Counted from the first letter of the stretch, positions 33,356-55,912 are shown. The stretch: DNA of 64,000 nucleotides from an uncultured Acidobacteriota bacterium (GCA_963729215.1 CAVSND010000011.1:2836-66835); one strand, 5' to 3'. Numbers and translations: made by a program. The notes: generated by a model not told the origin, from the letters alone.

Positions 33356-33470
33356 ATCTGGTCATCTGGTCATCTAGTCATTTGGTCATCGTTTGGAAAT
33401 TTGGCAATTTCTCAATTGAACAACGATGACCAGATGACTAAATGACTAGATGACCAGATGATTGGGGTTC
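33356..33470. repeat. octamer-built palindromic element, copy 1 (arms of 4x ATYTRGTC + ATCGTT around a TTGGCAATTTCTCAATTGA core)
   Basis: 'atctggtcatctggtcatctagtcatttggtcatcgtt tggaaatttggcaatttctcaattgaac aacgatgaccagatgactaaatgactagatgaccagat'. Starts 1 nt after the AhpD-like TGA; the AmpG stop lies inside the right arm. Confidence 0.7.
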
Positions 33471-34706
33471 GCCCCGCCACGGCGCGACCTTGAAGAGCAG
33501 CAGCATGCCGGGAACCGCCAGCGCCGCGCACAGGAAGAAAAATCCCATCCATCCCAGCGTGTCCACCAGCCAGCCGGTGGCGGCATTGGCGAACGTGCGC
33601 GGCACGACCGCGAGGCTGGTGAACAGGGCGTACTGGGTGGCCGTGTAGCCGGGGTGGGTGGCGCGCGCGATGAACGCGCCCGAGGCGGCCGCGCCCAGGC
33701 CGACACCCAGCGCCTCGAGGCCAATCACGATGGCGAGCCGGGTGAGGTCCACGCTGGTGATCTCGGTGTGGGGCCCGGCGGCGGCCAGCCACGCGAAGCC
33801 GAAGATGGAGAACACCTGGACGAAGCCGAACAGCCACAGGGCCTTGTTCACGCCGATCTTCACCATCCACAGGCCGCCGAGCAGGCCGCCGACGACCGAC
33901 GGCCACAGGCCGGCGTTCTTGGCGACGAGCCCGATCTGGGTTTTGGAAAAGCCCATGTCGAGATAGAACGGCGTCGCAAGCGCCGTGCACATGCTGTCGC
34001 CGAGCTTGTAGAACAGCAGAAACGTCAGGATCAGCAGCGCATTGCTCCATCCCTTCCGGTTGATGAATTCATGGAACGGCTCGACCACCGCCTCGCGCAG
34101 CGTCCGGGGCGGCGCGGCGCGGTGCGGCTCCCGGACCAGCAGGGTCATGACCATGCCGGGCACCATGAACAACGCGGTCACCGCGAACACCACGCTCCAC
34201 GGCAGGATGTCGGCGAGCACCAGCGAGAGCGACGCCGGCACGAGCCCCGCGATGCGATAGGCGTTGATGTGGACGGCCGTGCCCAGGCCGAGCTCGTTAT
34301 CCGCCAGCAACTCCCGGCGATAGGCGTCGAGCGCGATGTCCTGGGTGGCGGAGAGAAACGCCAGCAGCGTCGCGACCAGCACGATGGCGCGCAACTCGGT
34401 CTGCGGCGAGAGCCCTCCGAGCGCGGCGATCGTCACGAGCAGCCCCACCTGAGTCAGCAGCATCCAGCCGCGCCGCCGCCCCAGCACGGGCAGGGCATAC
34501 CGGTCCACCAGCGGCGCCCAGAGAAATTTCCAGGTGTACGGGAACTGGATCAGCGTCAACAGGCCGATCACCCTCAGGTCGATGTGTTCGGTGCGCAGCC
34601 ACGCGGGAACGAGCGTGAGCAGCAGGTACAGCGGCAGGCCGGAGGCAAAGCCGGTGAACACGCAGATCAGCATGCGGCGGGTGAAGAGTTGCCGCCAGAC
34701 GGTCAC
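33438..34706 (-). CDS. AmpG-family MFS transporter (muropeptide permease-like)
   Basis: 422-aa single frame, 12+ TM, 'DAYRRE' and 'YKLGD' AmpG-type motifs. The last residues ('...SSGHLVI') are encoded by the repeat element. Confidence 0.65.
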   Translation of the reverse strand: MTVWRQLFTRRMLICVFTGFASGLPLYLLLTLVPAWLRTEHIDLRVIGLLTLIQFPYTWKFLWAPLVDRYALPVLGRRRGWMLLTQVGLLVTIAALGGLSPQTELRAIVLVATLLAFLSATQDIALDAYRRELLADNELGLGTAVHINAYRIAGLVPASLSLVLADILPWSVVFAVTALFMVPGMVMTLLVREPHRAAPPRTLREAVVEPFHEFINRKGWSNALLILTFLLFYKLGDSMCTALATPFYLDMGFSKTQIGLVAKNAGLWPSVVGGLLGGLWMVKIGVNKALWLFGFVQVFSIFGFAWLAAAGPHTEITSVDLTRLAIVIGLEALGVGLGAAASGAFIARATHPGYTATQYALFTSLAVVPRTFANAATGWLVDTLGWMGFFFLCAALAVPGMLLLFKVAPWRGEPQSSGHLVI

Positions 34707-34794
34707 AGTCGTTGCTCCAGATGGGCACCCGGGATGCGCGTCACGCGCCTCGCAGTTCCGGGGGATTCTATCAGGCCGCGGAAGAGTGCGGCTT

Positions 34795-34878
34795 GAAACG
34801 TAGAACTGTAAAACGGAAAACGCAAAACGTAGAACTTCCTGAGTCCTTCTTCGTTTTACGTTCTACGTTTTACGTTCC
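34795..34878. repeat. hairpin element of tandem AAAACGN heptamers (arms 'cgtaaaacggaaaacgcaaaacgtagaac' / 'cgttttacgttctacgttttacg')
   Basis: Shares the 19-mer AAAACGCAAAACGTAGAAC with the element at 19036-19110. Lies between the VWA gene stop and the AmpG promoter. Confidence 0.5.
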
Positions 34879-34905
34879 AGGCGTGTTGTTTGTGGAGACG
34901 CCTGG

Positions 34906-35917
34906 CTATGAGCCCGGCGGCTTCGCCGCGAGATAGCGCTTGCGGGCGCGCGCCATCAGCTCCGGCTGCGACAGACGCACCGTGAGGTCGTGCATCTTGC
35001 CGTCGAGTTTTTCCGGTGTGAAGCCGAGGGCGTACTGATGATGGAGCTCGTTGGCGACGCGCGCGAACGTGGTGGGGAGCTCCCTGGCAGACGTCAGTTC
35101 GAAGTAGCCGCCGCCTGTCGCGGCCGCGATCTTCGGCAGCCCCTCGTCCGGCTTCTCCATCTGCGGTCCGCCGCCGCCCGAACTGCCGCGCGCCGCGCCC
35201 GCCGAAGCCGCCGCCTCCGCTGCGTCCGAGCGGATCGGGGATGCCGCGAAGGGCGGCAGGCGCGCCGTTCTGGCCGGCCAGTCCGATGGCGTACACCATC
35301 ACGTTCTGTTCTTCGGCGCGCTTCATCACGTCCTTCAGCGACTTGTTGTGGTTGCTGAAATTCAGCGGCATGTCGACGCCGTCGGTGAACACCAGGACCA
35401 CCCGCCGGCCCTGCTCGACGAGGAGCTTGTCGATGCCGATGTCCACGGCATTCCAGAGCGGCGTCGGGCCGTCCTCCTGAAGGTCGCCCCTGAGGATCTT
35501 CAGGAGCGTGCCGTGGTCCGAGGTGAACTCGTCAGGGTCCACCTGAATCCGGGTCGCGAAACTGCCAATCCGCGCCTTGTCGGCCGGACCCATCGCCCCG
35601 ACGAACGCTTCCGCGGCCCGCTCCTCGAGATCGAAATTCGGCTTCATGCTGCCGCTGCGGTCCAGCAGCATGACCACGGTGATCGGCTGGACGTCGTTGG
35701 AGAAGAGGGTGAGTTCCTGGCGCTTCCCGTCATCGTCTATTTTGAAATCGTCGCGCGACAGGTCGGTTTCGAGCCGGCCTCGCGCGTTGGTGACGGTGGC
35801 GTACACCGCGACCGTGCGGGTGCCGGCCGTGAACGAGGGAGGCTGCGTCTGCGGCGCCGCGGACGGCGCGCCGAGGGACGCGAGAAACAGGACGACGAGC
35901 GCGGTTGGGCGTCTCAT
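34906..35917 (-). CDS. secreted von Willebrand factor A domain protein; at least 1-2 frameshifts (about 35160-35240)
   Basis: Signal peptide. 'VVMLLDRSGSM' MIDAS motif and 'VVLVFTDGVD'. The C-terminus 'KIAAATGGGYFELTSARELPTTFARVANELHHQYALGF' is in a different frame. Confidence 0.6.
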
Positions 35918-36034
35918 GCTGGTCCGCCGGGAACGGATCGCTTCATCTTAGCCGCCGGACCGGCCGGCGGATATGACAAATCCATGACGGTACATGCGCC
36001 GCGCGGGCGTGTCAGACGGGTCCCTTCAGTTCCT

Positions 36035-36952
36035 TTACGGCAGGTGTCCGTCCGCGCTCGTCTCGATCACCGCGCCTCTGACGGCCACCTCGACCCCGAC
36101 GGTCTTCGGATCCTTCGCCCCTTTGGGCGCCTCGTAGGTCAGCCGGTATTGGTATTGCTGCCTGGCCGCGCTGGCCGCGATCTGTCTGCCGATCTCGGGC
36201 AGCAGCGTGTCGAGCCGTGTCGCTGTGATGATGTTCTCGTAGCGGCCGCCGGTCATGCTCGCGACCTGGTTGCCGATGTTGGTCTGAAAGGCGCCGGTGA
36301 CCTCCGAACCGCTCTTCGACGACACCGACAGCAGCACATAGTGCACGGTCACGGCGCGGGCGATCAGCTCCTTCTGCAGCCGCTGGTACTCGTTCTCGAG
36401 CGGCGGGTTGCTGTTGCCGAAGGTGCTGATGACGGCCACAAAGACCGGAAAGGAGCCGGCCTTGTCTTTTGCGGCGCGGTCGGCGGCCTCCAGGAGCCCG
36501 TCGAAGAATTTTCCGGCGCCCGCGTCGGGCGTGATCAGGTTGACGCCCTTGTAGAGCGGCTCGCCGCCCTTGATCGGCCGCACCAGCCACCGCGGCTGCG
36601 GCGCCAGCGTGAGCAGCGACGTCTCGGTGTCCCCTGGCACTTCCCTGAACAGTCCGCGCAGGCCGTTGCGCATGTTCAACAGGTAGTCGGACGACTTCCC
36701 GCCGTTGTCCACCATGACGGTGAGCTTGATCGGCCATTCGATCGGCTCGGCCTTGAGCGTCCGGCATTTCACGCCGTCTTCGACGATGGTGAACGCGTCG
36801 GCGGAGAGGCCGGTGATGGGCGCACCGGTCAGGTCGGCCACCCTGACCCAGGCCTGCCGCGGCTGCTGCGCCCTGAGGCTGACGCCGGCAAGGCCGGGAC
36901 CGACAACCAGGACGACGCCGAGGACGACACCGGCGATTCGGGCACGGCGCAT
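36035..36952 (-). CDS. secreted VWA-like protein (paralogous architecture to 34906-35917)
   Basis: Real start at 'MRRARIAGVVLGVVLVVG' (signal peptide). The upstream 290 aa of the ORF-track product are antisense to the gene at 37070-37885. 'KLTVMVDNGGKSS...VFVAVISTFGNSN'. Confidence 0.5.
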   Translation of the reverse strand: MRRARIAGVVLGVVLVVGPGLAGVSLRAQQPRQAWVRVADLTGAPITGLSADAFTIVEDGVKCRTLKAEPIEWPIKLTVMVDNGGKSSDYLLNMRNGLRGLFREVPGDTETSLLTLAPQPRWLVRPIKGGEPLYKGVNLITPDAGAGKFFDGLLEAADRAAKDKAGSFPVFVAVISTFGNSNPPLENEYQRLQKELIARAVTVHYVLLSVSSKSGSEVTGAFQTNIGNQVASMTGGRYENIITATRLDTLLPEIGRQIAASAARQQYQYRLTYEAPKGAKDPKTVGVEVAVRGAVIETSADGHLP

Positions 36953-37069
36953 GCGCACCTCACGCGAAAGCGAAGACTGCGGATTGTACAGCCGATGTCG
37001 CGGCGCAACGGCCGGCGCCGCGGACGCCGGCTGACCCGGTCCATCGGTTTCGGGTTTACACTGCTCGGC

Positions 37070-37885
37070 ATGCGTTGCCATTTCCTGATCGGCGCGTTGA
37101 TTCTTGGAGCCTGCGTGTCCGCGCACGCCCAGTGGCTGAACCAGCCGATGGCCGGGGCTCCCCGCACGCCCGACGGCAAGGTGAACATGACGGGGCCGGT
37201 TCCCCGCGTCAACGGCAAGCCGGACCTCTCGGGACTCTGGCAGGTGGAGGCCGAGCCCCGCGGCCCGGGTCTCTTCGGATTGGGCGAGTCTCCCAACTCG
37301 AAATACTTCAGGGACATCCTTTCGGACTTCAAGCCCGGCGAGGAGCCCCTGACGGAAGCGGGCCGCGAACTCTTCAACAGGCACGTCCAGGCGGGCGCAT
37401 TCGCGAATCCCAGCCTGAACTGCCTGCCGGACGGCGTGCCCCACGCGGATCTGCTGCCGGAGCCGTTCAAGATCATTCAGACGCCCGGCGTCATCGTGAT
37501 GCTGTACGAAGTGGAGACGATTTTCCGCCAGGTGTTCACCGACGGACGGAAACAGCTCGTGGATCCGGCGCCCACGTGGCTCGGTTACTCCGTCGGGAAG
37601 TGGGACGGCGACACGCTGGTGGTCGACACGCGCGGATTCAACGACCGCAGCTGGCTGGATGCGCGGGGCCACGGCCACAGCGAGGAGATGCGCGTCGAGG
37701 AGCGCTTCCGCCGGCGCGATTTCGGCCACCTGGACCTCACCATCACGATCGAGGACCCGAAGATCTTCACCCGGCCGTTCACCTTCAGCGTCACCGAACG
37801 GCTGCTTCCGGACACGGACGTGTTCGAGCACATCTGCGCCGAGGCGGAAAAGGACGCCGCGCGAATCGCCAACGCGCCGAAGTGA
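37070..37885 (+). CDS. secreted hypothetical protein (paralog of 29727-30803)
   Basis: Signal peptide 'MRCHFLIGALILGACVSAHA' and the conserved block described above. Confidence 0.6.
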   Translation: MRCHFLIGALILGACVSAHAQWLNQPMAGAPRTPDGKVNMTGPVPRVNGKPDLSGLWQVEAEPRGPGLFGLGESPNSKYFRDILSDFKPGEEPLTEAGRELFNRHVQAGAFANPSLNCLPDGVPHADLLPEPFKIIQTPGVIVMLYEVETIFRQVFTDGRKQLVDPAPTWLGYSVGKWDGDTLVVDTRGFNDRSWLDARGHGHSEEMRVEERFRRRDFGHLDLTITIEDPKIFTRPFTFSVTERLLPDTDVFEHICAEAEKDAARIANAPK

Positions 37886-37937
37886 TCCGCGCGCGCGGTC
37901 AGCGGCGATCCCGGGCGTCGCGGGAGTTGTTGCGAGG

Positions 37938-40532: not shown

Positions 40533-40541
40533 CGCCGCGAG

Positions 40542-41159: not shown

Positions 41160-41181
41160 AGCGGGCCCGCGGCGGGGCAGG

Positions 41182-41517: not shown

Positions 41518-41744
41518 GACGCGAAGTCGTCAGCCAGACCTTCATCGGCGAGCCGTTTTTCCTCGCGCGGATTCAGGTTGGCGGATTCGCGGGCAAGCCG
41601 GGTCCGGGCGAGCCGTTGAAGCTTGTCAGCGAGCGCGGCTTCGATGGCCTGGCTTCGATTCCTGAACCGTTGACGGTCCACGAGTTCATCGAGGCGTTGC
41701 AGAAGGGCGCTGTCCAATGTCAGAGCGACTTTTGTCTTGGGCAT
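41502..41744 (-). CDS. ribbon-helix-helix (CopG/MazE-like) antitoxin
   Basis: 'KTKVALTLDSALLQRLDELVDRQRFRNRSQAIEAAL' RHH motif. Confidence 0.7.
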   Translation of the reverse strand: MPKTKVALTLDSALLQRLDELVDRQRFRNRSQAIEAALADKLQRLARTRLARESANLNPREEKRLADEGLADDFASWPEY

Positions 41745-41858
41745 CGTCGGTATGATGAATCATCATACCAAGGGCGTGCACTGCCCCGGCAGGCTCACTC
41801 GGCGTTATGTTGCCCCTGGGTGTCGCATCGCATCCGGCAACGAGAGTGACAGGCTGGC

Positions 41859-44800
41859 TTACTTGGTCGCCTCGGCCGGCTCCAGCGCCGCCGCCTGCTG
41901 ACGGCTCTTCAGCCACGCCTGCACCTGCGCCATGTAGGTGTAGAACACCGGCGTCAGATACAGCGTCACGAGCTGTGAAAACAGCAGCCCGCCGACCACG
42001 ACCAGGCCGAGCGGCTGCCTGGCCTCGCCGCCCGCGCCGTACCCGAGCGCGATCGGCACGGCGCCGAGCAGCGCCGCCATCGTCGTCATCATGATCGGCC
42101 GGAAGCGGATCAGGCAGCCCTGGTAGATGGCCTGCTCGGGCGTGCTGCCCTGGCGCTCGGCGTCGAGCGCGAAGTCGATCTGCATGATCGCGTTCTTCTC
42201 GACGATGCCGATCAGCATGATCATGCCGACGAAGGCGTAGATGTTGAGATCCATCCCGAACAGGACGAGCGTCAGCAGCGCGCCGAAGCCGGCCGAGGGC
42301 AGGCCGGAGAGAATCGTCAGCGGGTGGATGTAGCTCTCGTAGAGGATGCCCAGCACGATGTAGACGACCATGATGGCGATCACGAGGAGCACGGCGAGGT
42401 TCGACAGCGAGTTCTGGAACGCCTTGGCCGCGCCCTGGAACTGGCCGCTGACGCCTTCGGGGAGCGTGGCCGTGGCCACGGTGCGCACGCGGCTCAGCAC
42501 GTCGCCGAGCGACGCGCCGGGCGCGAGACCGAACGAGATGGTGACCGCCGGCAGCTGGCCGTAGTGGTTCACGGTCTGCGGGCCGATGACCTGCGTGGCG
42601 CGGGCCAGCGTGTCGAGCGGCACGACGATGCCGGCCGATCCGCTCGGGCCGTTGGCGCCCGTGCCGCCGTTGCCGGCAGCAGCGGCCGCATTGATGGCCG
42701 CCGCCGTCCCGGGGGCCGGCGTGGCCTTGAAGTAGAGGAGCGAGAGCGCCGCCGGGTCGGACTGGTACTGCTCGGCGAGCTCGAGCAGGACCTTGTACTC
42801 GTTGACCGGCGCGTAGATCGTGGACACCCAGCGCGGACCGTACGCGTCGTAGAACGCGTTCTCGATGGCGTTCGCCGTGATGCCGAGCGCCGCCGCCTTG
42901 TCGCGATCGATCTCGACGTTCACCTGCGGGCTCGTGACCTGGAGGTCGCTCGTCAGATCGGCGAGGCCTTCCACGTCCGCCAGCGCCTTCATCAGCGTGC
43001 GCGACGCCGCGTAGAGCGCCTCGCGGTCCGGCGACTGCATCGAGGACCTGATACAGGCTCTTGCTCACCTGGCCGCCGATGCGGATGGTCGGCGGGTTCT
43101 GCACGAACGTGTGCATGCCGACGACCGTCGCCAGCTGCGGCCGCAGCTTCTCGATGATCTGGTTGGCCAGCTCCTTCCGCTCGCTGCGCGGCTTGAGGTG
43201 GACGACGATCTGGCCGAGGTTGGGACCGCCAAGCGTGTTCGATGCGCTGCCGCCAATCGTCGAGACGAGCGCCTCGACGTTCGGATCGTTGCGGATGATG
43301 TTCGCCACCTCGCCCTGGTATTCGACGAGCTTGTCGTAGGACGTGCCCTGCGCGGCCTCCGTCGTCACCGCCAGCTGGTCCGTGTCCTGATCGGGAATGA
43401 ACCCCTTCGGGACGTAGACGAACAGCGCGCCCGTGAGGACCAGGAGGACGATGGACGCCGCCATCGTGGCGCCGCGATGCCTCAGCACGATCTGAAGTGT
43501 CCGGTCGTAGCTGGCCAGCAGGCTCGCGAACGCGCGTTCGGTCGCCACCGCGAACCGCGAACCGCCCTCGTGCCCGGGTGCCGCGTGTCCGCCTTTTTCA
43601 TCCGCGTTGTGCGCATGCTTGGGCTTCTTGAGGAAGCGGCTGCAGAGCATGGGCGTGAGCGTCACCGAGACGACGCCAGAAATCAGGATGGCGACGCAGA
43701 TCGTGACCGAGAACTCACGGAACAGCCGGCCGAGCACGCCGCCCATGAAGAGGACGGGGATGAACACGGCCGCCAGCGACAGCGTCATCGACACGATCGT
43801 GAACCCGATTTCGCGCGACCCGACGAGCGACGCGGTGAGCGGGTCTTCACCCATTTCGACGTGCCGGTAGATGTTCTCGAGCATCACGATCGCGTCGTCC
43901 ACGACGAAGCCGACCGAGAGAATGAGCGCCATCATCGACAGGTTGTCGAGGCTGTACCCGAGCATGTACATGACCGCGAACGTGCCGATGATCGAGAAGG
44001 GCAGCGCGAGGCTGGGAATGACGGTCGCCCACACGTTCCGCAGGAACACGAAGATGACCATGATCACGAGCGCGAGCGTGAGCGCCATGGTGATCTGCAC
44101 GTCCGATGACGATTCGCGGATCGTGTCCGACCGATCGTAGAGGACGTCCATGTGCACGCTGGTCGGCAGCTCCATCTGGAACTGGGGCAGCAGGGCCTTG
44201 ACGGCGTCGGCCACGGCGATGGTGTTGGTCCCGGGCTGCCGCTGGATGCCGAGCGTGATGCCGCGCCGTTCGTCGTCCCGCGTGTAGTACCACGACGCCG
44301 TCCGCTGATCCTCGACGCCGTCGATGACGGCGCCGAGCTCGCGCAGCCGCACCGGCGCGCCATTGCGGTACGAGACGATCATGTCCTTGTACTGCTCGGC
44401 GTTCATCAGCTGGCCGGTCGCCTGCAGCGTGAAGGACTTGTGCGGCCCGACCAGCGTGCCGCTGGGCACGTTGCTGTTCCAGTTCCGCAGCTGCGTCTCG
44501 ACTTCGTTGATGCCGATCTGGCGTGACGCCAGCGCGTGCGGGTCGAGCTGCACGTGCACGGCGTATTTCTGGCTGCCGAGCACCTGGACCTGCGCCACGC
44601 CGTTGACCATCGAGATGCGCTGCGCGATGCGCGTCTGCGCGTACTCGTCGAGCGTCCACGGCGGCAGCGTCGTCGAGGTGATGACGAGGTAGAGGACGGG
44701 CTGATCCGCCGGGTTGACCTTGGTGAAGGTCGGCGGCGTCGGCATGCCCTGCGGCAGCAGGCGCGAGGCCTGCGTGATCGCCGACTGCACGTCGATGGAG

Positions 44801-45111
44801 GCGCCGTCGAGGCTCCGGTTCAGGTCGAACTCGAGCGTGACGAGCGTCGAGCCGAGCGAGTTCACCGACGTCATCGACTCGAGGCCGGCGATCATCGAAA
44901 ACTGGTTCTCGAGCGGCGTCGCGACGGACGCGCCCATCGTCTCGGGGCTGGCGCCGGGCAGCTGCGCCGTGACGAGGAGCGTCGGGAAATCGACGTTGGG
45001 GAGGTCGCTGACCGGGAGCGATCGATACGCCACCAGGCCGAAAAGCGCGATCGCCGCCATGAGGAGGCTGGTGGCGATCGGCCGCTTGATAAATCCTTCG
45101 GAAATGTTCAT
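41859..45111 (-). CDS. RND efflux permease (AcrB/MdtB/MdtC-like), paralog 1; frameshift about 43045
   Basis: 'MNISEGFIKRPIATSLLMAAIALFG...' about 690 aa, then the C-terminal half in ORF 41859-43040 ('...FALDAERQGSTPEQAIYQGCLIRFRPIMMTTMAALLG'). Its ATG overlaps the paralog-2 stop (ATGA). Confidence 0.85.
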
Positions 45112-48100
45112 ACGGTAACCGGGTCAGACGCCGACCTTGCGGCGATTTTGCTCGTGCGGAAAACTTGCGCCATGTACGTGTAGACGACGGGCGTGAGATA
45201 GAGCGTCAGCATCTGCGAGACGATGAGGCCGCCGACGACGGCGAGCCCCAGCGGCCGCCGCGCTTCGCCGCCCGCGCCGAAGCCGAGCGCAATCGGCACG
45301 GCGCCGAGCAGCGCGGCCATCGTCGTCATCATGATGGGCCGGAAGCGGACGAGGCAGCCTTCGTAGATCGCCTCGGTGGGCGTCATCGCCTGCTTGCGTT
45401 CGGCCTCGAGGGCGAAGTCGATCTGCATGATCGCGTTCTTCTTGACGATCCCGATCAGCATGATGAGGCCGACAAAGGAGTAGATGTTCAGCTCGTTGCC
45501 GAACAGCCAGAGCGTGACGAGGGCGCCGAGGCCGGCCGATGGCAGGCCCGAAAGAATCGTGATCGGGTGGATGTAGCTCTCGTACAGCGCGCCGAGCACG
45601 ATGTACACCACGCCGATGGCCACGAAGAGCAGCAGGCTGAGGTTCTTCGTGGATTCCTGGAAGACCTTGGCCGACCCTTCGAAATTGATCGTCACCGTCG
45701 CGGGCAGCACCTGGCCCGCCACGTCCTTGATGCGGTCGACGGCGGCGCCGAGCGACACGCCGGGCCGCAGCCCGAACGAGACGGACACCGACGGCAGCTG
45801 CCCCGAGTGGTTGATGCTCTGGGGACCGACCGTCTCCTGCCGGGACGCCACGGTCTCGAGCGGCACCAGCGTCCCGCGCGGCGTCTTGAACGAGATCTTC
45901 TCGAGCGAGTCGGCGTACTGCTGGTACTTCGGATCCAGCTCGACGAGCACGCGGTACTGCGTGGCGTCGCCGTAAATCGTGGACGACCACTTCGGGCCGA
46001 ACCCGATCGAGAGCACGTTCGTGATTTGCGTCGCGTTGAGCCCGACGGCGGCGGCCTTGTCGCGATCGATGATCAGGTTGACCTTCGGGCTCCGGATCTC
46101 CAGGTCGTTCGACACGTCCTGGATTTCCGCGATGCCCTGCATGGCCGTGCTCAGGCGGCGCGCCTGGGCATAGAGCTCGTCGGTGTCCGGGCTCCGCACC
46201 GTGACGTTGTACGAGCTGTTGCCCACACGCGCGCCGATGTTGAGAGACGAAGGCAGGTTCACGAACACGTTGTAGTTCGGAAAGCTCAGGAGCTGGCGCC
46301 GCAGCTGCTGCGAGATCTGCTGCGCGGACTGGGGACGCGTCGCGCGCGGCGTCAGGTTCACCTGGAGCTGCGCGGTGTTCTGGGACCCGCCGTACCCGCT
46401 GCCGCCGCCGCCGGTCCGGACCATGAAGCTGTCGATGTACGGATTCTTGCGGACGATCTCGGCCACCTTCTGCGCCGCCGCGGACATCTCGTAGAACGAC
46501 GTGCCCTGCGCCGCCCGGATGTTGATGTTCATCGAGTCGTTGTCCTGGTCGGGGATGAACCCCTTCGGGACCACGCCGTACATGTGGACCGTGGCGGCCA
46601 GGACGACGACGAACACGCCCAGCATCACCACCCGGTGGCGGAGGACGGCGCCGAGGCTCCACTTGTAGCCGTCGAACACCGCGTCGAACGCGCGATCGAG
46701 CAGCCCGGCCAGGCCGCGCTTGGTGTGCACGACGCGCAGGAAGCGGCTGCACAGCATCGGCGTCAGCGTGATCGACACGACGCCGGAAATGAGAATCGCC
46801 GCCGTGATCGTGACGGCGAACTCGCGGAACAGCCGGCCCAGGATGCCGGCCATGAACAGGATCGGGATGAACACGGCCGCGAGCGACGTGGTCATCGTGA
46901 GGATCGTGAAGCCGATTTCCTTCGATCCGTTGAGCGACGCCGTCAGCCGATCCTCGCCGGCCTCGATGTGGCGCACGATGTTCTCGAGCATCACGATCGC
47001 ATCGTCCACGACGAAGCCGATGCACAGGATGAGCGCCATCATCGACAGGTTGTTGAGGCTGAAGCCGAGCAGCTGCATGACGGCGAACGTGCCGAAGATC
47101 GAAAACGGCAGGGCCAGCGCGGGGATGATGGTGGCCGACCCGTTGTGGAGGAACAGGAAGATCACGGCCACGACCAGCACCAGCGTGATCATCATCGTCC
47201 ACTGGATGTCCTTGAACGCCGCCCGGATGGTCTTCGACCGGTCGCCGCGCACGAGCATGTGAATCGACGGCGGCAGCTGCGCGTTGAGCGCCGGGAGCAG
47301 CCTGAGGGCGGCGTCGGTCACCTCGATCGTGTTCACGCCCGGCTGCCGCTTGAGCGCCAGGTTGATGGCGCGCTGCCCGCCTTCGCGCGTGTAGAACCAC
47401 GTCGCGTTCATCGTGTCTTCGATGCTGTCGACCACGTTGGCGACCTGTTCGAGCCGCACGGGCTTGCCCTGCCGGTACGTCACGATGATCGGCTTGAACT
47501 GGGCCGCGTTGTTCAGCTGGCCGCCGGCCTTGATGTTGAACGTCTGGTGCGCGCCGAACAGCTGCCCGGTGGGCAGGTTGACGTTCCAGTTCTGCAGCGC
47601 CTGATCGACCTCGTTGATGCCGATCTGCTGCGTGCGCAGCCGGTCCGGATCGACCTGCACGCGCACCGCGTACTTCGCCTGGCCCCAGACCTCCACCTTC
47701 GCCACGCCGTTCACCATCGACAGGCGCGGCGCGACCACCGTTTCGGCGAAGTCGTCGAGCACCGACATCGGCACGGTGTTCGAGATCAGCGCGAGCTGCA
47801 GGATGTCCTGATCGGCGGGGTTCTGTTTGCGGAAGGTCGGCGGCGACGGCATGCCCGCCGGCAGCAGCGGCATGGCTTCGGCAATGGCGGTCTGGACGTC
47901 GACCGCGGCGCTGTCCATCGATCGCGCGAGGTCGAACTGCAGCGTGACCTGGCTGCTGCCCGTGCCGCTCTGCGAGATCATCGAGTCCACGCCCGCGATG
48001 CTGGTGAACTGCCGCTCCAGCGGGCTCGCGACAGACGACGCCATCGTGCCGGGATCGGCGCCGGGCAGGCCCGCCTGCACCTGGATGGTGGGGAAGTCCA

Positions 48101-48218
48101 CCGTCGGCAGGTCGCTCACCGGCAGCGCCCGGTACGCGACGATGCCGAACATGGCGATGGCCGCCATGAGGAGGCTCGTGGCGATCGGCCGCCTGATGAA
48201 TCCTTCGGAAATGTTCAC
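45108..48218 (-). CDS. RND efflux permease, paralog 2 (intact)
   Basis: Single 1036-aa frame. Likely GTG start at 'VNISEGFIRRP' (48218), by comparison with paralogs 1 and 3, rather than the MMM codons at 48242. Confidence 0.9.
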   Translation of the reverse strand: MNISEGFIRRPIATSLLMAAIAMFGIVAYRALPVSDLPTVDFPTIQVQAGLPGADPGTMASSVASPLERQFTSIAGVDSMISQSGTGSSQVTLQFDLARSMDSAAVDVQTAIAEAMPLLPAGMPSPPTFRKQNPADQDILQLALISNTVPMSVLDDFAETVVAPRLSMVNGVAKVEVWGQAKYAVRVQVDPDRLRTQQIGINEVDQALQNWNVNLPTGQLFGAHQTFNIKAGGQLNNAAQFKPIIVTYRQGKPVRLEQVANVVDSIEDTMNATWFYTREGGQRAINLALKRQPGVNTIEVTDAALRLLPALNAQLPPSIHMLVRGDRSKTIRAAFKDIQWTMMITLVLVVAVIFLFLHNGSATIIPALALPFSIFGTFAVMQLLGFSLNNLSMMALILCIGFVVDDAIVMLENIVRHIEAGEDRLTASLNGSKEIGFTILTMTTSLAAVFIPILFMAGILGRLFREFAVTITAAILISGVVSITLTPMLCSRFLRVVHTKRGLAGLLDRAFDAVFDGYKWSLGAVLRHRVVMLGVFVVVLAATVHMYGVVPKGFIPDQDNDSMNINIRAAQGTSFYEMSAAAQKVAEIVRKNPYIDSFMVRTGGGGSGYGGSQNTAQLQVNLTPRATRPQSAQQISQQLRRQLLSFPNYNVFVNLPSSLNIGARVGNSSYNVTVRSPDTDELYAQARRLSTAMQGIAEIQDVSNDLEIRSPKVNLIIDRDKAAAVGLNATQITNVLSIGFGPKWSSTIYGDATQYRVLVELDPKYQQYADSLEKISFKTPRGTLVPLETVASRQETVGPQSINHSGQLPSVSVSFGLRPGVSLGAAVDRIKDVAGQVLPATVTINFEGSAKVFQESTKNLSLLLFVAIGVVYIVLGALYESYIHPITILSGLPSAGLGALVTLWLFGNELNIYSFVGLIMLIGIVKKNAIMQIDFALEAERKQAMTPTEAIYEGCLVRFRPIMMTTMAALLGAVPIALGFGAGGEARRPLGLAVVGGLIVSQMLTLYLTPVVYTYMAQVFRTSKIAARSASDPVTV

Positions 48219-48236
48219 GAGCCCGAGTTCCTTCAT

Positions 48237-48345
48237 CATCATCTGGTCGTCTGGTCATCTGGTCATCTGGTCATCGTCGATCGATTGCTGAATTGTTCAA
48301 TTGAACAGCGATGACCAGATGACCAGATGACTAAATGACCAGATA
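48237..48345. repeat. octamer-built palindromic element, copy 2, intercistronic within the RND operon
   Basis: 'atctggtcgtctggtcatctggtcatctggtcatcgtcg atcgattgctgaattgttcaattgaaca gcgatgaccagatgaccagatgactaaatgaccagat'. Lies between the paralog-3 TAA and the paralog-2 start. The loop contains the 14-nt perfect palindrome TGTTCAATTGAACA. Confidence 0.7.
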
Positions 48346-51300
48346 TTAAGCCGTGACCGGTTTTGCGGCCGCCGTCCCGCGAATCTTGCTCGTCCGGAAC
48401 ATCTGCGCCATGTAGGTGTAGACGACCGGCGTCAGGTAGAGCGTCAGTAACTGGGAGAAGATGAGGCCGCCCACGACCGCCAGGCCCAGCGGCCGCCGCG
48501 CTTCGCCGCCCGCCCCGAACCCGGCCGCGATCGGCAGCCCGCCGAGCAGCGCGGCCATCGTCGTCATCATGATGGGCCGGAAGCGGACGAGGCAGCCCTC
48601 GTAGATCGCCTCGGCCGGCGTCATCCCGAGCTTGCGCTCGGCGTCGAGCGCGAAGTCGATCTGCATGATCGCGTTCTTCTTGACGATCCCGATCAGCATG
48701 ACAAGACCCACGAACGAGTAGATGTTCAGCTCGTTGCCGAACAGCCACAGCGTGACGAGGGCGCCGAGGCCGGCCGACGGCAGGCCCGAGAGAATGGTGA
48801 TCGGGTGAATGTAGCTCTGGTACAGCGCGCCCAGGACGATGTAGACGACGCCGATCGCGACAAACAGCAGCATGCCGAGGTTCTTGGTGGACTCCTGGAA
48901 GACCTTGGCCGAACCTTCGAAGCCGACGTTGACGGTCGCCGGCAGCAGTCCCGCTGCGAGCTGGCGGATGCGATCGACGGCGGCGCCGAGCGACACGCCG
49001 GGCCGCAGCCCGAACGAGATGTTCACCGACGGCAGCTGCCCGAAGTGGTTGACGCTTTGCGGGCCGACGGTTTCCTTCGTCGACACGACGGACGGCAGCG
49101 GAATGAGCGCGCCGCGCGGCGTCTTGAAGGTGAGCTTGTCGAGCGAATCGGCGTACTCCTGGTACTTGGGATCGAGCTCGAGCAGCACGCGGTACTGCGT
49201 CGTGTCGCCGTAGATCGTGGACGACCACTTCGGGCCGAAGCCCGCGGAGAGCGCGTTCTCGATTTGGGTGGCGTTGAGGCCGACGGCGGCCGCCTTGTCG
49301 CGATCGATGACCAGGCTCACCTTCGGGCTCTTGATCTCGAGGTTGTTCGAGACGTCCTGGATCTCCGGGATCCGCGTCTCCATCGCCGCGCTCAGCCGGT
49401 CCGCCCAGGTGTAGAGCTGATCCGTGTCGGCGCTTTGCACCGTCACGTTGTAGCTGCTGTTGCCCTGGCCGAAGCCGATCTGCAGCGCCGGCGGGATCCG
49501 GACGAACGCGCGGAAGTTCGGGAACCGCAGCAGCTGCGGCCGGAGCTGCTGCGCGATCTGCTGCGCCGAGACCGGACGCTGCGCCCGCGGCACGAGCTGG
49601 ATCGGCATCTGAAAGTTCGAGCTCCCGCCGCCGTTGTAGTTGTTGCCGCCGAGGTTCATCACGAAGCTGTCCACGTATGGGTTCTTCCGGATGATCTCGG
49701 CCGCGCGCAGCCCGCCGGCGGCCATGTCGTAGAACGAGGTGCCCTGCGCCGCGCTCATGTTGACGAAGAGCATGTCGTTGTCCTGGTCCGGGATGAAGCC
49801 CTTGGGCACGATGCCGTACATGCGGACCGTGCCCGCCAGCACCCCCACGAACACGAAGACCATCGCGATGCGGTGGCGCAGCACGATGCCCGAGGCTCCA
49901 CTTGTAGCCGTCGAACACCGCGTCGAACGCGCGATCGAGCAGCCCGGCCAGGCCGCGCTTGGTATGCACGACGCGCAGGAAGCGGCTGCACAGCATCGGC
50001 GTCAGCGTGATCGACACGACGCCGGAAATGAGAATCGCCGCCGTGATCGTGACGGCGAACTCGCGGAACAGCCGGCCCAGGATGCCCGCCATGAACAGGA
50101 TCGGGATGAACACGGCGGCGAGCGACGTGGTCATCGTCAGGATCGTGAAGCCGATCTCCTTCGATCCGTTGAGCGACGCCGTCAGCCGATCCTCGCCGGC
50201 CTCGATGTGGCGCACGATGTTCTCGAGCATCACGATCGCATCGTCTACGACGAAGCCGATCGAGAGGATGAGCGCCATCATCGAAAGGTTGTTCAGGCTG
50301 AAGCCGAGCAGCTGCATGACGGCGAACGTGCCGAGGATGGAGAACGGCAGCGCCAGCGCCGGGATGAGCGTCGCCGACCCGTTGTGGAGGAATGCGTAGA
50401 TCACGCCGACCACGAGCACCAGCGTGATGAGCATCGTCCACTGGATATCGGCGAACGCCTTGCGGATGGTGCGCGAACGATCCTGGCGAATCAACAAGTG
50501 CGCAGACGGGGGCAGCTGCGCTTCGAGCGCCGGCAGCACGGCGCGCACCGCGTCGGTCACCTGGATGATGTTGATGCCGGGCTGCCGCTGGACGCCCATG
50601 TTGATGGCGCGGCGGCCGCCCTCGCGCGTGTAGAACCACGCGGCCGACCGCGTGTTCTCGACGCTGTCGAGCACCGTCGCCACCTGGTCGAGCCGGACCG
50701 GCCGCCCCTGGCGGTACGCGACGACGATCGACCGGAACTGCGCGGCGTTGTTCAGCTGGCCGCCCGCCTTGAGGTTGAACGTCTGGTGCGCGCCGAACAG
50801 CTGCCCGGTGGGCAGGTTGACGTTCCAGTTCTGCAGCGCCTGATCGACTTCGTTGATGCCGATCTGCTGCGCGCGCAGCTTGTCGGGATCCACCTGCACG
50901 CGTACCGCGTACTTCTGCGCGCCGTTCACCTGCACCTGCGACACGCCGCTCACCATCGAGATGCGCGGGGCCAGGACCGTCTCCGCGTAGTCGTCGAGCA
51001 GCGACATCGACAGGCTGTTCGACGTCAGGCTCAGCTGCATGATGTCCTGATCGGCGGGGTTCTGCTTGCGGAACGTCGGCGGATTCGGCATGCCCGCCGG
51101 CAGCAGCGGCATCACTTCGGAGAGCGCCGTCTGGACGTCGACGACCGCGCTGTCGATCGAGCGCCCGAGGTCGAACTGCAGCGTGACGTTGCTGCTGCCG
51201 GTGCTGCTCTGCGAGGTCATCGAGTCGATGCCCGCGATCGTCGTGAGCTGCCGCTCGATCGGGCTGGCGACCGCCGCGGCCATCGTGCCGGGATCGCCGC

Positions 51301-51457
51301 CCGGGAGTCCCGCCTGGATCTGAATCGTCGGGGAATCCACCGCCGGCAGGTCGCTCACCGGCAGCGCGCGGTAGGCGACGATGCCGAACATGGCGATGGC
51401 CGCCATCAGGAGGCTGGTGGCGATCGGGCGCCGGATGAAGAGTTCGGAGACGTTCAT
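48346..51457 (-). CDS. RND efflux permease, paralog 3; frameshift about 49885
   Basis: 'MNVSELFIRRPIATSLLMAAIAMFG...DGYKWSLG' then the C-terminal half in ORF 48346-49884. A stretch of several hundred nt around 49890-50390 is nearly identical to 46650-47150 of paralog 2. Confidence 0.85.
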
Positions 51458-51472
51458 GGACGTCTGCCTCGC

Positions 51473-52813: not shown

Positions 52814-52969
52814 CGATGAACTCCAGGCGGAAGTCGGGTCGGGATGGATCCGGCTGAGAACGCAGTCTCCTGCCCGCGCTTTATCGCTATCTACAATACG
52901 TGCCCGGCGCGCATACCATTTACGAGGGGTTTTCCTATCGTTTCCTCAGGAATCAGGGTCGCTTTCGCC

Positions 52970-53819
52970 ATGACTTCGCAGGTCCGCCCGCTCGAGGCGG
53001 AAACGGACGCCACGCAGGCCCTTGAAGCCGGCCACGTGCTCTGGTCGCAGGCCCCCTTGTTCGCGCTGACGGTGCCGGAGCGCCCGCTATTGTCGTCCTC
53101 TGTGCTGGCAAGAGGCAAGAACGTCAGCTTCGATCCGGCCACCGGGGCGGTGGGCGGGAGCGCCCTGACCGGCGAGGCCGCCGGAAGCCTCAAAAGCATG
53201 CTGGCGCGGTTCAGCGACGAGGCGCTGGCGCTGGTGGGACGGGTCTTTCCGGGGTATCGCCAGCGGGTCGAGCGCAGGCGGACGAGCTTCCGCCCGATCG
53301 AGGTCGCGGGACGCGCTTCGTCCTGGCGGCAGGACGACACGCGCCTGCACCTCGACAGCTTTCCGGCGTCGCCCGTGCGGGGAGCAGCGCATCCTGCGCG
53401 TCTTCGCCAACGTGAACCCGGAAGGCCGCCCGCGATCGTGGCGGATTGGGGAGGACTTCGAGGCCGTGGGCCGGCGGTTCGCGCCGAGGCTCCGGATGCC
53501 CGCGCCCGGAAGCGCGCTGCTGCTCCGGGCGTTCGGGATCACGAAGTCGCGCCGCTCGGCCTACGACTCGATGATGCTGCAGCTGCACGATCTGATGAAG
53601 GCCGACAACGCGTATCAGCAGGACGCGCCGCAGACCGCGTTCGACTTCCCGGCGGGATCGACGTGGATGGCGTTCACCGACCAGGTGAGCCACGCCGCGA
53701 TGGCCGGCCAGTACCAGCTCGAACAGACTTTTCTGCTGCCCGTCGACGCAATGCGCGAGCCCGGGCGATCGCCGCTGCAGAATTCTCGAACGCTTGCTGG
53801 AACGGGCCCACTCCTGTAG
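52970..53819 (+). CDS. Kdo hydroxylase (KdoO)-like Fe(II)/2-oxoglutarate dioxygenase; frameshift about 53378
   Basis: 'TRLHLDSFPASPVRG | EQRILRVFANVNPEGRPRSWRIGEDFEAV' matches the KdoO 'RLHVDAFP...RILRVFTNVNP' signature. Confidence 0.5.
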
Positions 53820-53820
53820 A

Positions 53821-53925
53821 TCTGGTCATCTGGTCATTTAGTCATCTGGTCATCGTTGGTCAATTGAGAAATTGCCAGATTGACAAACGATGACCAGATG
53901 ACCAGATGACCAAATGACCAGATTC
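53821..53925. repeat. octamer-built palindromic element, copy 3 (core in opposite orientation to copy 1)
   Basis: 'atctggtcatctggtcatttagtcatctggtcatcgtt ggtcaattgagaaattgccagattgaca aacgatgaccagatgaccagatgaccaaatgaccagat'. Lies between convergent stop codons (53819 and 53933). Confidence 0.7.
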
Positions 53926-53932
53926 GCTATTT

Positions 53933-54528
53933 CAGTATGGTGGCCGTCACCTCGACGGTGACCTTCCGGTCGCTGACCGGATCGGTCGCCTGCGTGGCGA
54001 CGAGCGGCTTGCCGCTGTCGAGGATCAGGACGAAGTTCTGCTTGATGTCGGTGACTGGATCGGTTGCCGGCTTCGCGGCTCTGCGCCGACTGGTACTGGA
54101 TGGTGCACTGCAGCCGGATCTTGCCGTTCGCCAGGATGGTGGGGTAGGCGTCGAAGTTCAACGGGATCAAGTTGGGTGGAACCGTCGCGACCTCGCGCAC
54201 CGAGCCGTTGAAACCGTCGCCGGCGACGGCCGAGACGCTTTTCCTGATCGGCGGGCCGCCGCCGCCGTCCTCGGTGATGTTCAGGTCCACTTTTACGTTG
54301 ATCGACTGCCGCGCCGCAGGCGGCGCAGGCGGTGCGGGAGGAGCCGGCGGCGGCGGGGGCGGCGCCTGGGCGGCTGGCGCGGCCGGGGCCGGCGGCGCCG
54401 CGCGGTGCCGGTTGGGGCGCACGCGGTGCCGTCTGGGCAAACACATGACCGGCGGCGAACACGAACGCCGCCAACAGCACGACTCTGGTTCTCATCATCG
54501 GTTCTCTCCGTGAACTTCCAACTTCCAA
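53933..54528 (-). CDS. small secreted Pro/Ala-rich protein with conserved C-terminal domain; two frameshifts (about 54420 and about 54098)
   Basis: Signal peptide 'MMRTRVVLLAAFVFAAGHVFAQ'. 'APPPPPPAPPAPPAPP...INVKVDLNITEDGGGGPPIRKSV...ILANGKIRLQCTIQYQ' then '...DPVTDIKQNFVLILDSGKPLVATQATDPVSDRKVTVEVTATILK*'. Confidence 0.4.
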
Positions 54529-54529
54529 C

Positions 54530-54600
54530 TTCTGACTTTCTCAACTTCTACGTTTTAACTTTGCACTTCAAACTTCCGACTTTCTTCTAGGGCATCGCCG
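54530..54600. repeat. tandem heptamer repeat (AACTTCY)n, about 10 units
   Basis: 'aacttccaacttccaacttctgactttctcaacttctacgttttaactttgcacttcaaacttccgactttc', immediately upstream of the Pro-rich gene start. Confidence 0.5.
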
Positions 54601-55152
54601 CTAACTCGATCCGATCGATCGCGATAGTCGAGATCTCGATCGGCATCACGACCACGAGCGGCGAAACGTTGACCGGTTCCAGGACGATGGGCGCCAGCGG
54701 CCCGAGGTCCGGGCTCGCTGGCCGCGCGGCCGCGGGAGGTTTCCCCAGCGCAGCGGACGCGGTCCGCGGTGCCGTGCCGGGTGCCGCCCCCTTGAGGCCC
54801 GTAATGGACGTAACGGCACGTAACGGCAGCAGCGCCTTCGTCTGCGGGGCCGCCGCGATTTCGCGGCCCGCCTCCGGATTCGTTTGGACCGTCTGCGCCG
54901 GCGTCGGCGCCGGATTCTCCCGTGCGACGAACACGGCCAGCGCCAGCAGCACGCGGCCGCCGCCGGCGCCAGCAGCCACACCCACGGCCACGTGCGCCTC
55001 TCGCCGTCTGCGTCGATGCGCGCCGACACCCGCCGCGCGAGCCCGGCGTCCACGGGCGCGCTCGTCATCTCGCGAGCGATGTCGTTTATCACCGGGTCGA
55101 TCGCCGGGTCTGTCGCCGCGTCGATATCGAATTCTTTACTCATCGTGTCCAT
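54587..55152 (-). CDS. membrane-anchored anti-sigma factor; frameshift about 54960
   Basis: Start overlaps the ECF sigma 3' end by 17 nt. 'ERRTWPWVWLLAPAAAA' TM segment, then Pro/Ala-rich periplasmic region in the second frame (54587-54991). Confidence 0.5.
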
Positions 55153-55711
55153 GCGTGCGCAGCGACGCGCGGACGGCCCGCCGCGCCTCCGACACGCGCC
55201 ATTTGATCGTCCCGGCCGGCGCGTCGAGCATCGCCCCCATCTCGTCGTAGCTGTACTCGCCGCTCTGCGCGAGCAGCAGCGCGTCGCGCAGTTTTGGCGG
55301 CAGCGCCGCGATGGCCTGCCGGATGCCGCTCCGCAGCTGGCCGCCGGCGGCGAGTTCCTCCGGCGTCGCGGGCGGCGGCGGGCTGAAGCCGGACGCGCTC
55401 ACGGCGCGCGTGTCCGCGTCCCCAACCGGCACGATCCGCTGCCACCAGCGCGCGGCCGCGCGCCTGCGATTGATAGCCTGGTTCCACGCGATCGTCAGCA
55501 GCCATGTCTTGAAGCTCGCCGCGCCCCGGAAGCTCTTGAGCCGCCGGTACGCCAGCAGGAACGCCTCCTGCGCCACATCGTCGGCATCGGCTGTCGAGCC
55601 GGTGGCCGCGAGGGCGGCCCTGTAAACGGCGGCCTGATGCCTGACGACCAGCTCGCCGAATGCGGCGGTGTCGCCTTCGCGGGCTCGGGCGACCAGGTCG
55701 TCGTCGGTCAC
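55136..55711 (-). CDS. ECF (RpoE-like) sigma-70 family sigma factor, intact
   Basis: Region 2 'AFLLAYRRLKSFRGAASFKTWLLTIAWNQAINRRR'; region 4 'LPPKLRDALLLAQSGEYSYDEMGAMLDAPAGTIKWRVSEAR'. Confidence 0.85.
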   Translation of the reverse strand: MTDDDLVARAREGDTAAFGELVVRHQAAVYRAALAATGSTADADDVAQEAFLLAYRRLKSFRGAASFKTWLLTIAWNQAINRRRAAARWWQRIVPVGDADTRAVSASGFSPPPPATPEELAAGGQLRSGIRQAIAALPPKLRDALLLAQSGEYSYDEMGAMLDAPAGTIKWRVSEARRAVRASLRTHGHDE

Positions 55712-55739
55712 TCAGTCAGTAGACACCCGGGGCCGGGGA

Positions 55740-55812
55740 ATGGTTGGGGGGTAGAGGTTGGAGGTTGGAGGTTGGAGGTTAGAGGTTAGAGGTTAGAGGT
55801 TGGGGGTTGGAG
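55740..55812. repeat. tandem heptamer repeat (GAGGTTR)n, about 10 units, upstream of the ECF sigma gene
   Basis: 'ggttggggggtagaggttggaggttggaggttggaggttagaggttagaggttagaggttgggggttggagg'. Confidence 0.55.
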
Positions 55813-55814
55813 GC

Positions 55815-55912
55815 ACCCGGTCATCTGGTCATCTGGTCATCTGGTCAATTTGAAATTGCCAAATCGACAAACGATGACCAGACGACCGGATGACCAAACG
55901 ACCGGATTCGCG
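55815..55912. repeat. octamer-built palindromic element, copy 4 (more degenerate arms)
   Basis: 'ccggtcatctggtcatctggtcatctggtcaa tttgaaattgccaaatcgac aaacgatgaccagacgaccggatgaccaaacgaccgg'. Immediately after the cytochrome c peroxidase stop. Confidence 0.6.

Follow-up and report, generated by a model that had tools for sequence, protein, structure and literature searches.

Tandem-octamer palindromes behind stop codons in an uncultured Acidobacteriota bacterium and their possible relation to S23p hairpin cassettes

What are the four palindromes built of tandem octamers that lie close behind stop codons in a 64,000-nt stretch of DNA (hereafter the window) from an uncultured Acidobacteriota bacterium (GCA_963729215.1, CAVSND010000011.1:2836-66835)? 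A first-pass annotation of this stretch, in which the copies are here numbered 1 to 4 by position, had proposed a dispersed family resembling repetitive extragenic palindromes (REPs) and the bacterial interspersed mosaic elements (BIMEs) that they form, or transposable elements of the miniature inverted-repeat kind (MITEs), or else a structured RNA. The four copies are real and not ordinary: they belong to an undescribed palindrome family that is widespread and dispersed. Moreover, it is fairly probable that they are miniatures, lacking an open reading frame (ORF), of hairpin cassettes that carry an S23p gene, within a non-coding palindrome family dispersed throughout the lineage of Vicinamibacteria-type Acidobacteriota.

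Four palindromes and a dispersed family

Using a profile of 12 family members (E<=1), exactly four octamer palindromes are found in the window. Their presence is confirmed by direct reading of the sequence, by TRF, in which every arm appears as a period-8 array of 3.5-4.6 units, and by counts of the 16-mer ATCTGGTCATCTGGTC, which, with up to 3 mismatches, has 25 matches in the window against 0.51 expected, 24 of the 25 being inside the four copies. In each copy, a 29-40-nt core with the same 8-nt period is preceded by four ATYTGGTC octamers and followed by four GACYARAT octamers, and the elements, counted from the sequence, have a G+C content of about 40% in a window of about 66%. The first-pass annotation had placed all four sites correctly, with limits that shift slightly (Table 1), and it was right about the four octamers per arm and about core words occurring in either orientation, but the architecture that it ascribed to every copy is not uniform: ATCGTT stands on the left-hand side of copies 1 and 3 only; TTGGCAATTTC is direct in copy 1, reverse-complemented in copies 3 and 4, and absent from copy 2; and CAATTGA is present in copies 1-3 and absent from copy 4, which carries CAATTTGA. 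Copy 3, when inverted, has 92% identity to copy 1, and copy 4 has a shortened core (29 nt), several transitions in its right arm, and a TCGCGA end. A single-word motif of the Chi or KOPS kind was considered and rejected, as the single octamer is not enriched in the window outside the elements (3 occurrences against about 1.2 expected).

A 16-mer scan with one genome per species gave at least 114 matches, and the family counts that follow hold among the matches listed. The enriched ones are in metagenome-assembled genomes (MAGs) of Acidobacteriota, namely, Microflora Danica long-read bins, Vicinamibacterales, and Luteitalea; by our estimate, chance alone would yield a few hundred occurrences of a 16-mer in 596 Gb, and most other matches are therefore likely to be chance occurrences or plain arrays. 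A strict palindrome finder missed degenerate copies, and the chaining of units was used instead. This revealed at least about 50 hairpin elements in at least 18 species-level (GTDB) Vicinamibacteria-type genomes, obtained from Illumina and nanopore assemblies and JGI metagenomes (the L-numbers below denote retrieved loci from other genomes or plasmids), and the window's four are therefore not the only copies. In the literature, of which few subscription journals were covered, no description of this octamer family was found. Copy 3 found no counterpart in a BLAST search of plasmids and phages, and an IMG/VR scan with an 18-mer gave only unrelated contigs of 45% G+C and one plain array; nothing, then, points to a vehicle of phage or plasmid kind.

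The standard element comprises 13 octamers (4 + 5 + 4) in about 104 bp, that is, (ATYTGGTC)4, the core, and (GACYARAT)4. Since the core of about 40 nt is itself made of five degenerate octamers (e.g., ATCGTTGT TCGATTGC TGAATTCC TCAATTGA TCAACGAT), the 8-nt period runs through the whole element. The arms always follow the order ATCTGGTC...GACCAGAT (48 forward-to-reverse elements and 0 of the opposite kind). Four-unit arms are the commonest (55 of 102), the 4+4 layout is found in 17 of 51 elements, and the median length is 103 nt; arm length ranges from 2 to 12 units, and the two arms are unequal in 30 of the 51. Unit follows unit without spacers, and the two arms are inverted, which bears out the earlier statement that these are not CRISPR arrays, as it was also correct that they are not the terminal inverted repeats of an insertion sequence flanking a transposase. 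Within the unit, positions 3 and 5 vary by transitions only and the six others are nearly invariant, in a position matrix biased by the cut-off of <=2 mismatches used for finding units. The termini read YGA followed by ATYTGGTC, where only YGA/TCR is general and where TCGCGA and CGGTGA sub-classes exist; in 99 aligned ends, the flanks have only a palindromic GA/TC in common (G 57% at -2, A 65% at -1). At one locus (L110 6417-6500), the right end of the element and about 12 nt of its flank (GACCAGATGACCAAATtcagagttctcg) are duplicated 53 nt downstream, a local rearrangement at the element boundary.

How did these arrays reach their sites? One simple explanation is that they were made in place: units of 7-8 nt would be multiplied after gene ends by polymerase slippage and mirrored by hairpin-templated repair, with no mobility involved. 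The variable and often unequal arms speak for this, as do the existence of single arms, the like hairpins formed at junctions between RND transporter genes by GGTCCAA, GAATGACG/TAGTCATT, and GGTAGGTC units, the further 7-nt arrays in the window, and the published attribution of heptamer over-representation to slippage (PMC4692102). Slippage, however, is unable to seed a unit at new sites, and it accounts poorly for the same octamer in at least 18 species, for a 4+5+4 layout that recurs across species, and for a polarity of 48 to 0. It also fails to account for non-repetitive cores that are common to unrelated loci and different species. Indeed, the cores of non-orthologous loci with unrelated flanks match at normalised scores of 0.55-0.80, where the shuffle maximum is 0.22; examples are copies 1 and 3 (0.80, inverted), L071 and L079 of one MAG (0.74), and copy 2 and L056 of another species (0.70). 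We therefore regard formation in place as decidedly unlikely. Another possibility is the healing of double-strand breaks by templated addition of the same unit at both 3' ends, which could also yield the strict forward-to-reverse polarity but leaves the shared cores unexplained.

The RND-RND junctions offer a view of turnover. In the window, one junction contains a full hairpin (copy 2) and the other is empty, with 12 nt (45111-45128). In an ortholog of the triple RND operon (L075, 87-90% nucleotide identity), both junctions contain single arms only, and among related junctions, one is empty (L133) and two have degenerate single arms (L135, L136). Given that cores are common to unrelated loci and that these junctions are found empty, half-filled, or full, whole elements have dispersed, their cores being copied with them to unrelated sites. 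Other units form similar hairpins at RND junctions in other soil lineages (GGTCCAA/TTGGACC, GGTAGGTC-like, and GAATGACG/TCGTCATT/TAGTCATT; L134, L175, L153, and L156-L163, upstream of ~1201). Consequently, hairpins with tandem-repeat arms form a broader class with lineage-specific units.

The site of copy 1, between a CMD/AhpD-like gene and an MFS transporter gene, is instructive in another way. Four relatives keep the element there (91-95% protein identity), two of the four with 3+3 units instead of 4+4. In L115 (3161-3263, compared with 33356-33461 of the window), the arms are unchanged and the core is inverted, with about 80% identity only when flipped. Arm length, then, changes by whole units, and the core can flip in place, apparently by way of the inverted arms, so that core orientation is no evidence of the direction of insertion. 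The arms are more conserved than the core in these relatives, and the copy 1 element is 0.92 identical to its counterpart in L116 versus 0.79 at third codon positions, which points to constraint or to concerted evolution of the arms. No CMD-MFS locus without the element was found; all syntenic relatives carry it, and distant homologs have lost synteny.

S23p genes between inverted arms

The idea that the copies are miniatures comes from genes found between the same arms. All five acidobacterial S23p genes (PF05635/TIGR02436) examined lie between inverted tandem-repeat arms, and in four of the five, these arms are made of the same octamers. Three of these genes are in loci selected by the repeat pattern (L079, L014, and L067), where three out of three are so enclosed. 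In L079 (3001-3504), four octamers and ATTGATTGGGG are followed by an S23p-like ORF and then by ..CCAATCCATCAATCAAT and four octamers; this long form has arm variants and inner edges (ATTGATTGGGG...CCAATCAAT) in common with a short copy 700 nt away. Between the arms of L014 (961-2026) are a 131-aa ORF and a PF05635 gene, the stop of the latter abutting the right arm. The arms of both loci first seemed to be pairs of solo arms and proved to bracket genes. The S23p gene of L067 lies between inverted (GATTGAT)n arrays. S23p homologs fetched independently of the repeat give a similar picture, with arms of 48 nt at 79% complementarity in L211 and of 37 nt at 73% in L212-L215.

The inverted-flank scores of the acidobacterial S23p genes are 14.5-33, apart from L014 with its distant left arm (7.5). 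The 425 control ORFs have a median of 8 and a 95th percentile of 11.5; five of them score at least 17, and these include genes between two elements. In the sampled loci, short forms outnumber long ones by about 48 to 3, and the long forms with the same ends (L079, L211, L212, and L014) encode S23p and no transposase. In the literature, again with few subscription journals covered, no association between S23p genes and flanking tandem repeats was found. The cassette recurs beside Peripla_BP_2 genes (L212, L213 921-2565; L014 84-2879), and in L212, it is flanked by an 81-aa Peripla_BP_2 fragment and a 275-aa one, where it may have split or displaced a gene.

Such genes are also present in other phyla. 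A tblastn search of plasmids with S23p gave 26 records, mostly from Nostoc, Planktothrix, and other cyanobacteria, with Chlorohelix and Bernardetia in addition, and in four of six plasmid loci, the inverted tandem 7-mers bracketing S23p score well above their own shuffles. In N. punctiforme, the order is (AATTCGC)4, 14 nt, ATG...TAA, and then (TTGCGAA)4; N. flagelliforme has GATTGGA/GATTGCA against CAATCTN, Planktothrix AATCGTA against TACGATT, and Chlorohelix ATTTTRG. In a 50-kb stretch of the plasmid pNPUN02, the S23p gene scores 33.5 and the other 46 coding sequences at most 11; this stretch has only three heptamer arrays, two of which are the S23p arms. The fold predicted for the N. punctiforme locus would enclose the S23p ORF in a long-range stem of more than 30 bp. 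The plasmid cassettes (Planktothrix L218, Chlorohelix L219, Nostoc L216/L217) are situated between defence or mobility genes, in arrangements such as DISARM drmD - S23p - MmeI-type restriction enzyme, DUF1156 - S23p - Swt1 HEPN protein, and S23p beside site-specific integrases.

The physical linkage to S23p genes may also be taken to mean that the octamers are iterated DNA or RNA sites for a sequence-specific factor, possibly a pentameric S23p, with a role in nucleoid organisation, in regulation, or as a decoy. The near-invariance of six unit positions, with transitions only at 3 and 5, would suit such binding arrays, as would the stronger conservation of the arms than of the core and a commonest length of four units, which is also that of the Xanthomonas GGGAATC arrays. 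However, S23p is conserved between lineages whose units are entirely different, single octamers show no enrichment beyond the elements, and the matrix carries the bias of the mismatch cut-off; we hold binding arrays to be highly unlikely.

A much wider proposal is that S23p, or four-helix-bundle (Avd-like), genes define unrecognised mobile hairpin cassettes across phyla, with stems of tandem 7-8-nt units, such that the intervening sequences (IVSs) of 23S rRNA, the cyanobacterial short tandemly repeated repetitive (STRR) heptamers, the inverted heptamer pairs of Xanthomonas, and the acidobacterial octamer palindromes would be one system with S23p as its trans-acting factor. This we put forward only tentatively, as a rather doubtful conjecture. 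PF05635 resembles Avd, the accessory protein of diversity-generating retroelements (PMC10053308), and S23p might act together with a reverse transcriptase or a nuclease, in the manner of Avd in those retroelements.

Gene ends, hairpins, and the case for an RNA role

With few exceptions, the elements are located just 3' of a stop codon, in spacers between genes that are convergent or co-directional. Of the 46 sides that face a gene end, 32 have their stop within 0-13 nt of the outer octamer and 4 at a greater distance, and in the other 10 the stop falls within the element; some 38 classified contexts divide into about 24 co-directional, 10 convergent, and 4 divergent. In the window, copies 1 and 3 are between convergent genes and copies 2 and 4 are in co-directional spacers. 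The stop-codon proximity described in the first-pass annotation holds, with the distances given in Table 1, as does the position of copy 2 between two genes of the RND operon.

The predicted stems are long. A repeat finder gave ungapped stems of 38, 47, and 45 nt for window copies, with 85-92% complementarity, in line with the earlier prediction of about 38 bp. A one-unit shift gives a second register in which 29 nt pair at 97%, so the earlier idea of slippage in register is sound. When both strands of all copies are folded as RNA, the energies are between -49.9 and -71.4 kcal/mol, with z-scores of -7 to -13, and stable hairpins are thus predicted throughout; the strand with the better fold is the transcribed one in copy 4 and the non-transcribed one in copy 2.

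These features raise the possibility that the elements are RNA elements selected by the host, in which the hairpin terminates transcription or stabilises the upstream mRNA (as for REPs and I-shaped terminators) and in which spread is secondary. Their great stability, their location directly after stops, filling convergent spacers and being rare between divergent genes, the finding by a terminator scan of no canonical terminator at the gene ends adjoining the four copies, the conservation of the CMD-MFS element above third codon positions, and the strand preference of copy 4 are all consistent with this. Yet copy 2 has the opposite preference, the presence of the element varies among close relatives at one junction, and a U-tract is absent: neither arm is followed by a T-run, and the stem, with 38-47 bp and a G+C content of about 40%, is, as first described, not a classic rho-independent terminator. 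A purely structural role would require neither the octamer sequence nor the strict polarity, both of which are conserved across species. Moreover, wobble tolerance is absent in co-directional copies, where sense-strand mismatches are G-U in 23 cases against A-C in 37 (p = 0.09, in the wrong direction). No Rfam family is matched by the elements at gathering thresholds, and sub-threshold matches are to generic long hairpins only, namely, miRNA precursors and RNA-OUT. Because the G-U test is negative and Rfam contains no matching family, the proposal of a structured RNA under selection is not supported; there is no evidence that RNA pairing is what selection maintains, and a host-selected RNA element seems unlikely. 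The palindrome seems instead to be kept at the DNA level by concerted evolution of its arms.

The reading that we prefer, in which the copies are miniatures of S23p cassettes, would then run as follows. A hairpin cassette of about 0.5 kb, in which the same inverted octamer arrays bracket a small S23p/four-helix-bundle gene (PF05635, TIGR02436), would give rise to the short form by loss of the gene, and movement would depend on a factor supplied in trans, either S23p itself or a partner enzyme. Copies would survive only where they do not cut a gene off from its promoter or ribosome-binding site. Once transcribed, a copy would place a duplex of 38-47 bp at the 3' end of the upstream message, which, by analogy with IVS stems, might be a substrate of RNase III or a barrier to exonucleases; copy 2, in the RND operon, and copy 4, between peroxidase and sigma factor, might consequently act as points of mRNA processing or insulation.

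Several observations weigh against this reading. The window contains no S23p gene, and its four copies have no ORF in cores of 29-40 nt, so the link to S23p rests on relatives. The left arm of L014 lies 640 nt upstream of S23p, with another ORF between them, and two of the six plasmid loci have weak inverted flanks (Nostoc sp. C057 marginal, Bernardetia weak). To our knowledge, S23p is not known as a recombinase, and no transposase is present among the protein families that recur near the elements, which are ABC ATPases, kinases, and DUF3471 proteins only. The first-pass annotation had set target-site duplication against post-stop placement; the latter is what is found, and no direct repeats were seen by eye, without a formal repeat search, in the 99 aligned ends. 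No true pair of empty and filled sites was obtained for copies 1, 3, and 4. Single arms and differing units at the same kind of junction indicate that local slippage also shapes these loci, the G-U test lends no support to a function at the RNA level, and the direction of change, from long form to short, is one that we infer.

Table 1. Positions of the four copies and of the adjoining gene ends in the window, with the limits first proposed and the RNA folding energies of the two strands.
Feature	Position	Strand	Left arm	Core	Right arm	First-pass limits	Fold energies (kcal/mol)	Context
Copy 1	33356..33461		33356-33387 (4 octamers)	33388-33427 (ATCGTTTGGAAATTTGGCAATTTCTCAATTGAACAACGAT)	33428-33459	33356-33470	-63.8 / -60.4	between convergent genes
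Copy 2	48241..48344		48241-48272	48273-48312	48313-48344	48237-48345	-71.1 / -63.6	intercistronic, RND paralog 3 / RND paralog 2, both minus strand
Copy 3	53820..53923		53820-53851	53852-53891	53892-53923	53821-53925	-71.4 / -71.1	between convergent genes
Copy 4	55815..55907, or to 55913 counting terminal TCGCGA		55815-55846	55847-55875	55876-55907	55815-55912	-49.9 plus strand / -62.3 minus strand	downstream of cytochrome c peroxidase gene, upstream of ECF sigma factor gene, both minus strand
CMD/AhpD-like gene stop TGA	33353..33355	+						gene 32681-33355; abuts copy 1 at 0 nt
MFS transporter gene stop TAG	33438..33440	-						gene 33438-34706; inside copy 1 right arm, in ATCTAGTC variant unit
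RND paralog 2 probable GTG start	48216..48218	-						MNISEGF..., as in paralog 1 and homologs
RND paralog 3 stop TAA	48346..48348	-						1 nt from copy 2
KdoO (Kdo hydroxylase) gene stop TAG	53817..53819	+						abuts copy 3 at 0 nt
Signal-peptide (secreted) protein gene stop TAG	53927..53929	-						3 nt from copy 3; start ~54498; frameshifted in assembly; convergent
Di-haem cytochrome c peroxidase gene stop	55919..55921	-						gene 55919-57070; 11 nt from copy 4 last octamer

The gene ends around the copies show how closely these fit their sites. The C-terminus of distant CMD homologs has the same length (..PSF and stop against ..PEF and stop), and copy 1 therefore starts exactly after the native stop. 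On its other side, the TAG of the MFS gene is inside the right arm, so the last seven or so MFS codons are element sequence. Between copy 2 and the start of RND paralog 2, there are 22 nt with a possible GAAGGA ribosome-binding site.

Many spacers of this genome are filled by 7-8-nt repeats. A heptamer array, (GGTTGGA/GGTTAGA)x10 at 55742-55813, abuts copy 4 upstream of the ECF sigma gene, just as (GGYTAGA)n, an array of similar kind, adjoins a single octamer arm at L056 6600-6722; its GGTTGG motif could form a two-tetrad quadruplex, and its opposite strand reads (AACCTCC)n, which is anti-Shine-Dalgarno-like. There is a further intergenic array, (GGCTCGT)x10, at 58233-58301, and an AACTTCC-like one at 54513-54582 stops a few nt short of the ribosome-binding site (GGAGAG) and ATG that belong to the secreted-protein gene. 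At 34795-34880, the spacer between the MFS gene's start and a VWA-domain gene's end holds a hairpin of a second kind, whose arms have a 7-nt period (AAAACGN ... CGTTTTN); it may represent a further family of this class. The three tandem RND (AcrB-type) paralogs at 41686-51457 are downstream of an HlyD-type adaptor gene, and a 300-nt block that is 98% identical between paralogs 2 and 3 (46651-46950, 49890-50189) suggests recent gene conversion. Four genes are split across frames (KdoO 52844-53819, RND paralog 3 48346-51457, RND paralog 1 41686-45111, and the secreted-protein gene 53927-54498), which fits indel errors of a long-read metagenome assembly better than four pseudogenes.

Comparison with known systems

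Tandem heptamer arrays (STRR, GGGAATC) and the S23p genes of IVSs have been known for 20-35 years with no accepted function or origin. The present elements and their long forms connect heptamer-type arrays with S23p genes across Acidobacteriota, Cyanobacteria, and Chloroflexota, and add gene-less copies of the arms scattered after stop codons. Such elements place 40-bp duplexes inside operons, such as that for RND efflux, and overwrite gene 3' ends, such as the MFS C-terminus; they are also likely hotspots of assembly and annotation errors in abundant soil bacteria.

The earlier assignment to a dispersed repeat family of REP or MITE type was right in kind, but membership of either class is not borne out. 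Like MITEs, the elements are small, non-coding, multi-copy, and intergenic, have terminal inverted repeats, and outnumber a gene-bearing relative with the same ends. They differ from classical MITEs in that no target-site duplication is seen, the long form encodes S23p and no recognisable transposase, and the inverted repeats are tandem octamers. REPs, BIMEs, and REPINs (hairpins formed by paired REPs) resemble them as extragenic palindromes at gene 3' ends, as hairpins of about 100 nt (REPINs), and in that REP termini can supply the stop codon of a flanking ORF (PMC3733652). By contrast, the present arms are direct tandem octamers that are not self-complementary, with no GTAG or CGTC head. 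In about 470 kb of flanking sequence, no gene for a REP-associated tyrosine transposase (RAYT) was seen.

What the elements have in common with the IVSs of 23S rRNA is a long stem, in which the two element ends are paired, and, in the long forms only, an S23p ORF in the loop. The IVS of Coxiella burnetii is described as selfish, with an S23p ORF, a stem cut by RNase III, and GACAGAT heptamers that vary in number between strains (PMC4990558), and this tandem GACAGAT may be compared with GACCAGAT of the present elements. The window copies differ from IVSs in having no ORF and in occupying mRNA spacers after stops rather than rRNA helices.

The arrays of Xanthomonas and Nostoc provide a further comparison. 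The GGGAATC arrays of Xanthomonas have mostly four units and form 70-75 convergent inverted pairs per genome (PMC4692102, Rehm et al. 2015). They adjoin or overlap the upstream stop, are rare between divergent genes, and vary in length between close species, with their function left unresolved (PMC4692102). The present arrays share with these and with the GGGGA(C/T)T arrays of Nostoc the intergenic tandem units, mostly four, the stop-codon bias, and the inverted pairs. Another cyanobacterial unit, STRR2 (TTGGTCA), is the present octamer minus one base. The differences are that a link to S23p is not reported for the Xanthomonas and STRR arrays and that the present unit has 8 nt instead of 7 and, with only a GG doublet in ATCTGGTC, lacks G3 tracts, which makes an explanation of the four units by G-quadruplexes inapplicable here. 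Finally, in contrast to those arrays, the present element has a conserved core with an 8-nt period that joins the two arms into a copyable unit of 104 bp.

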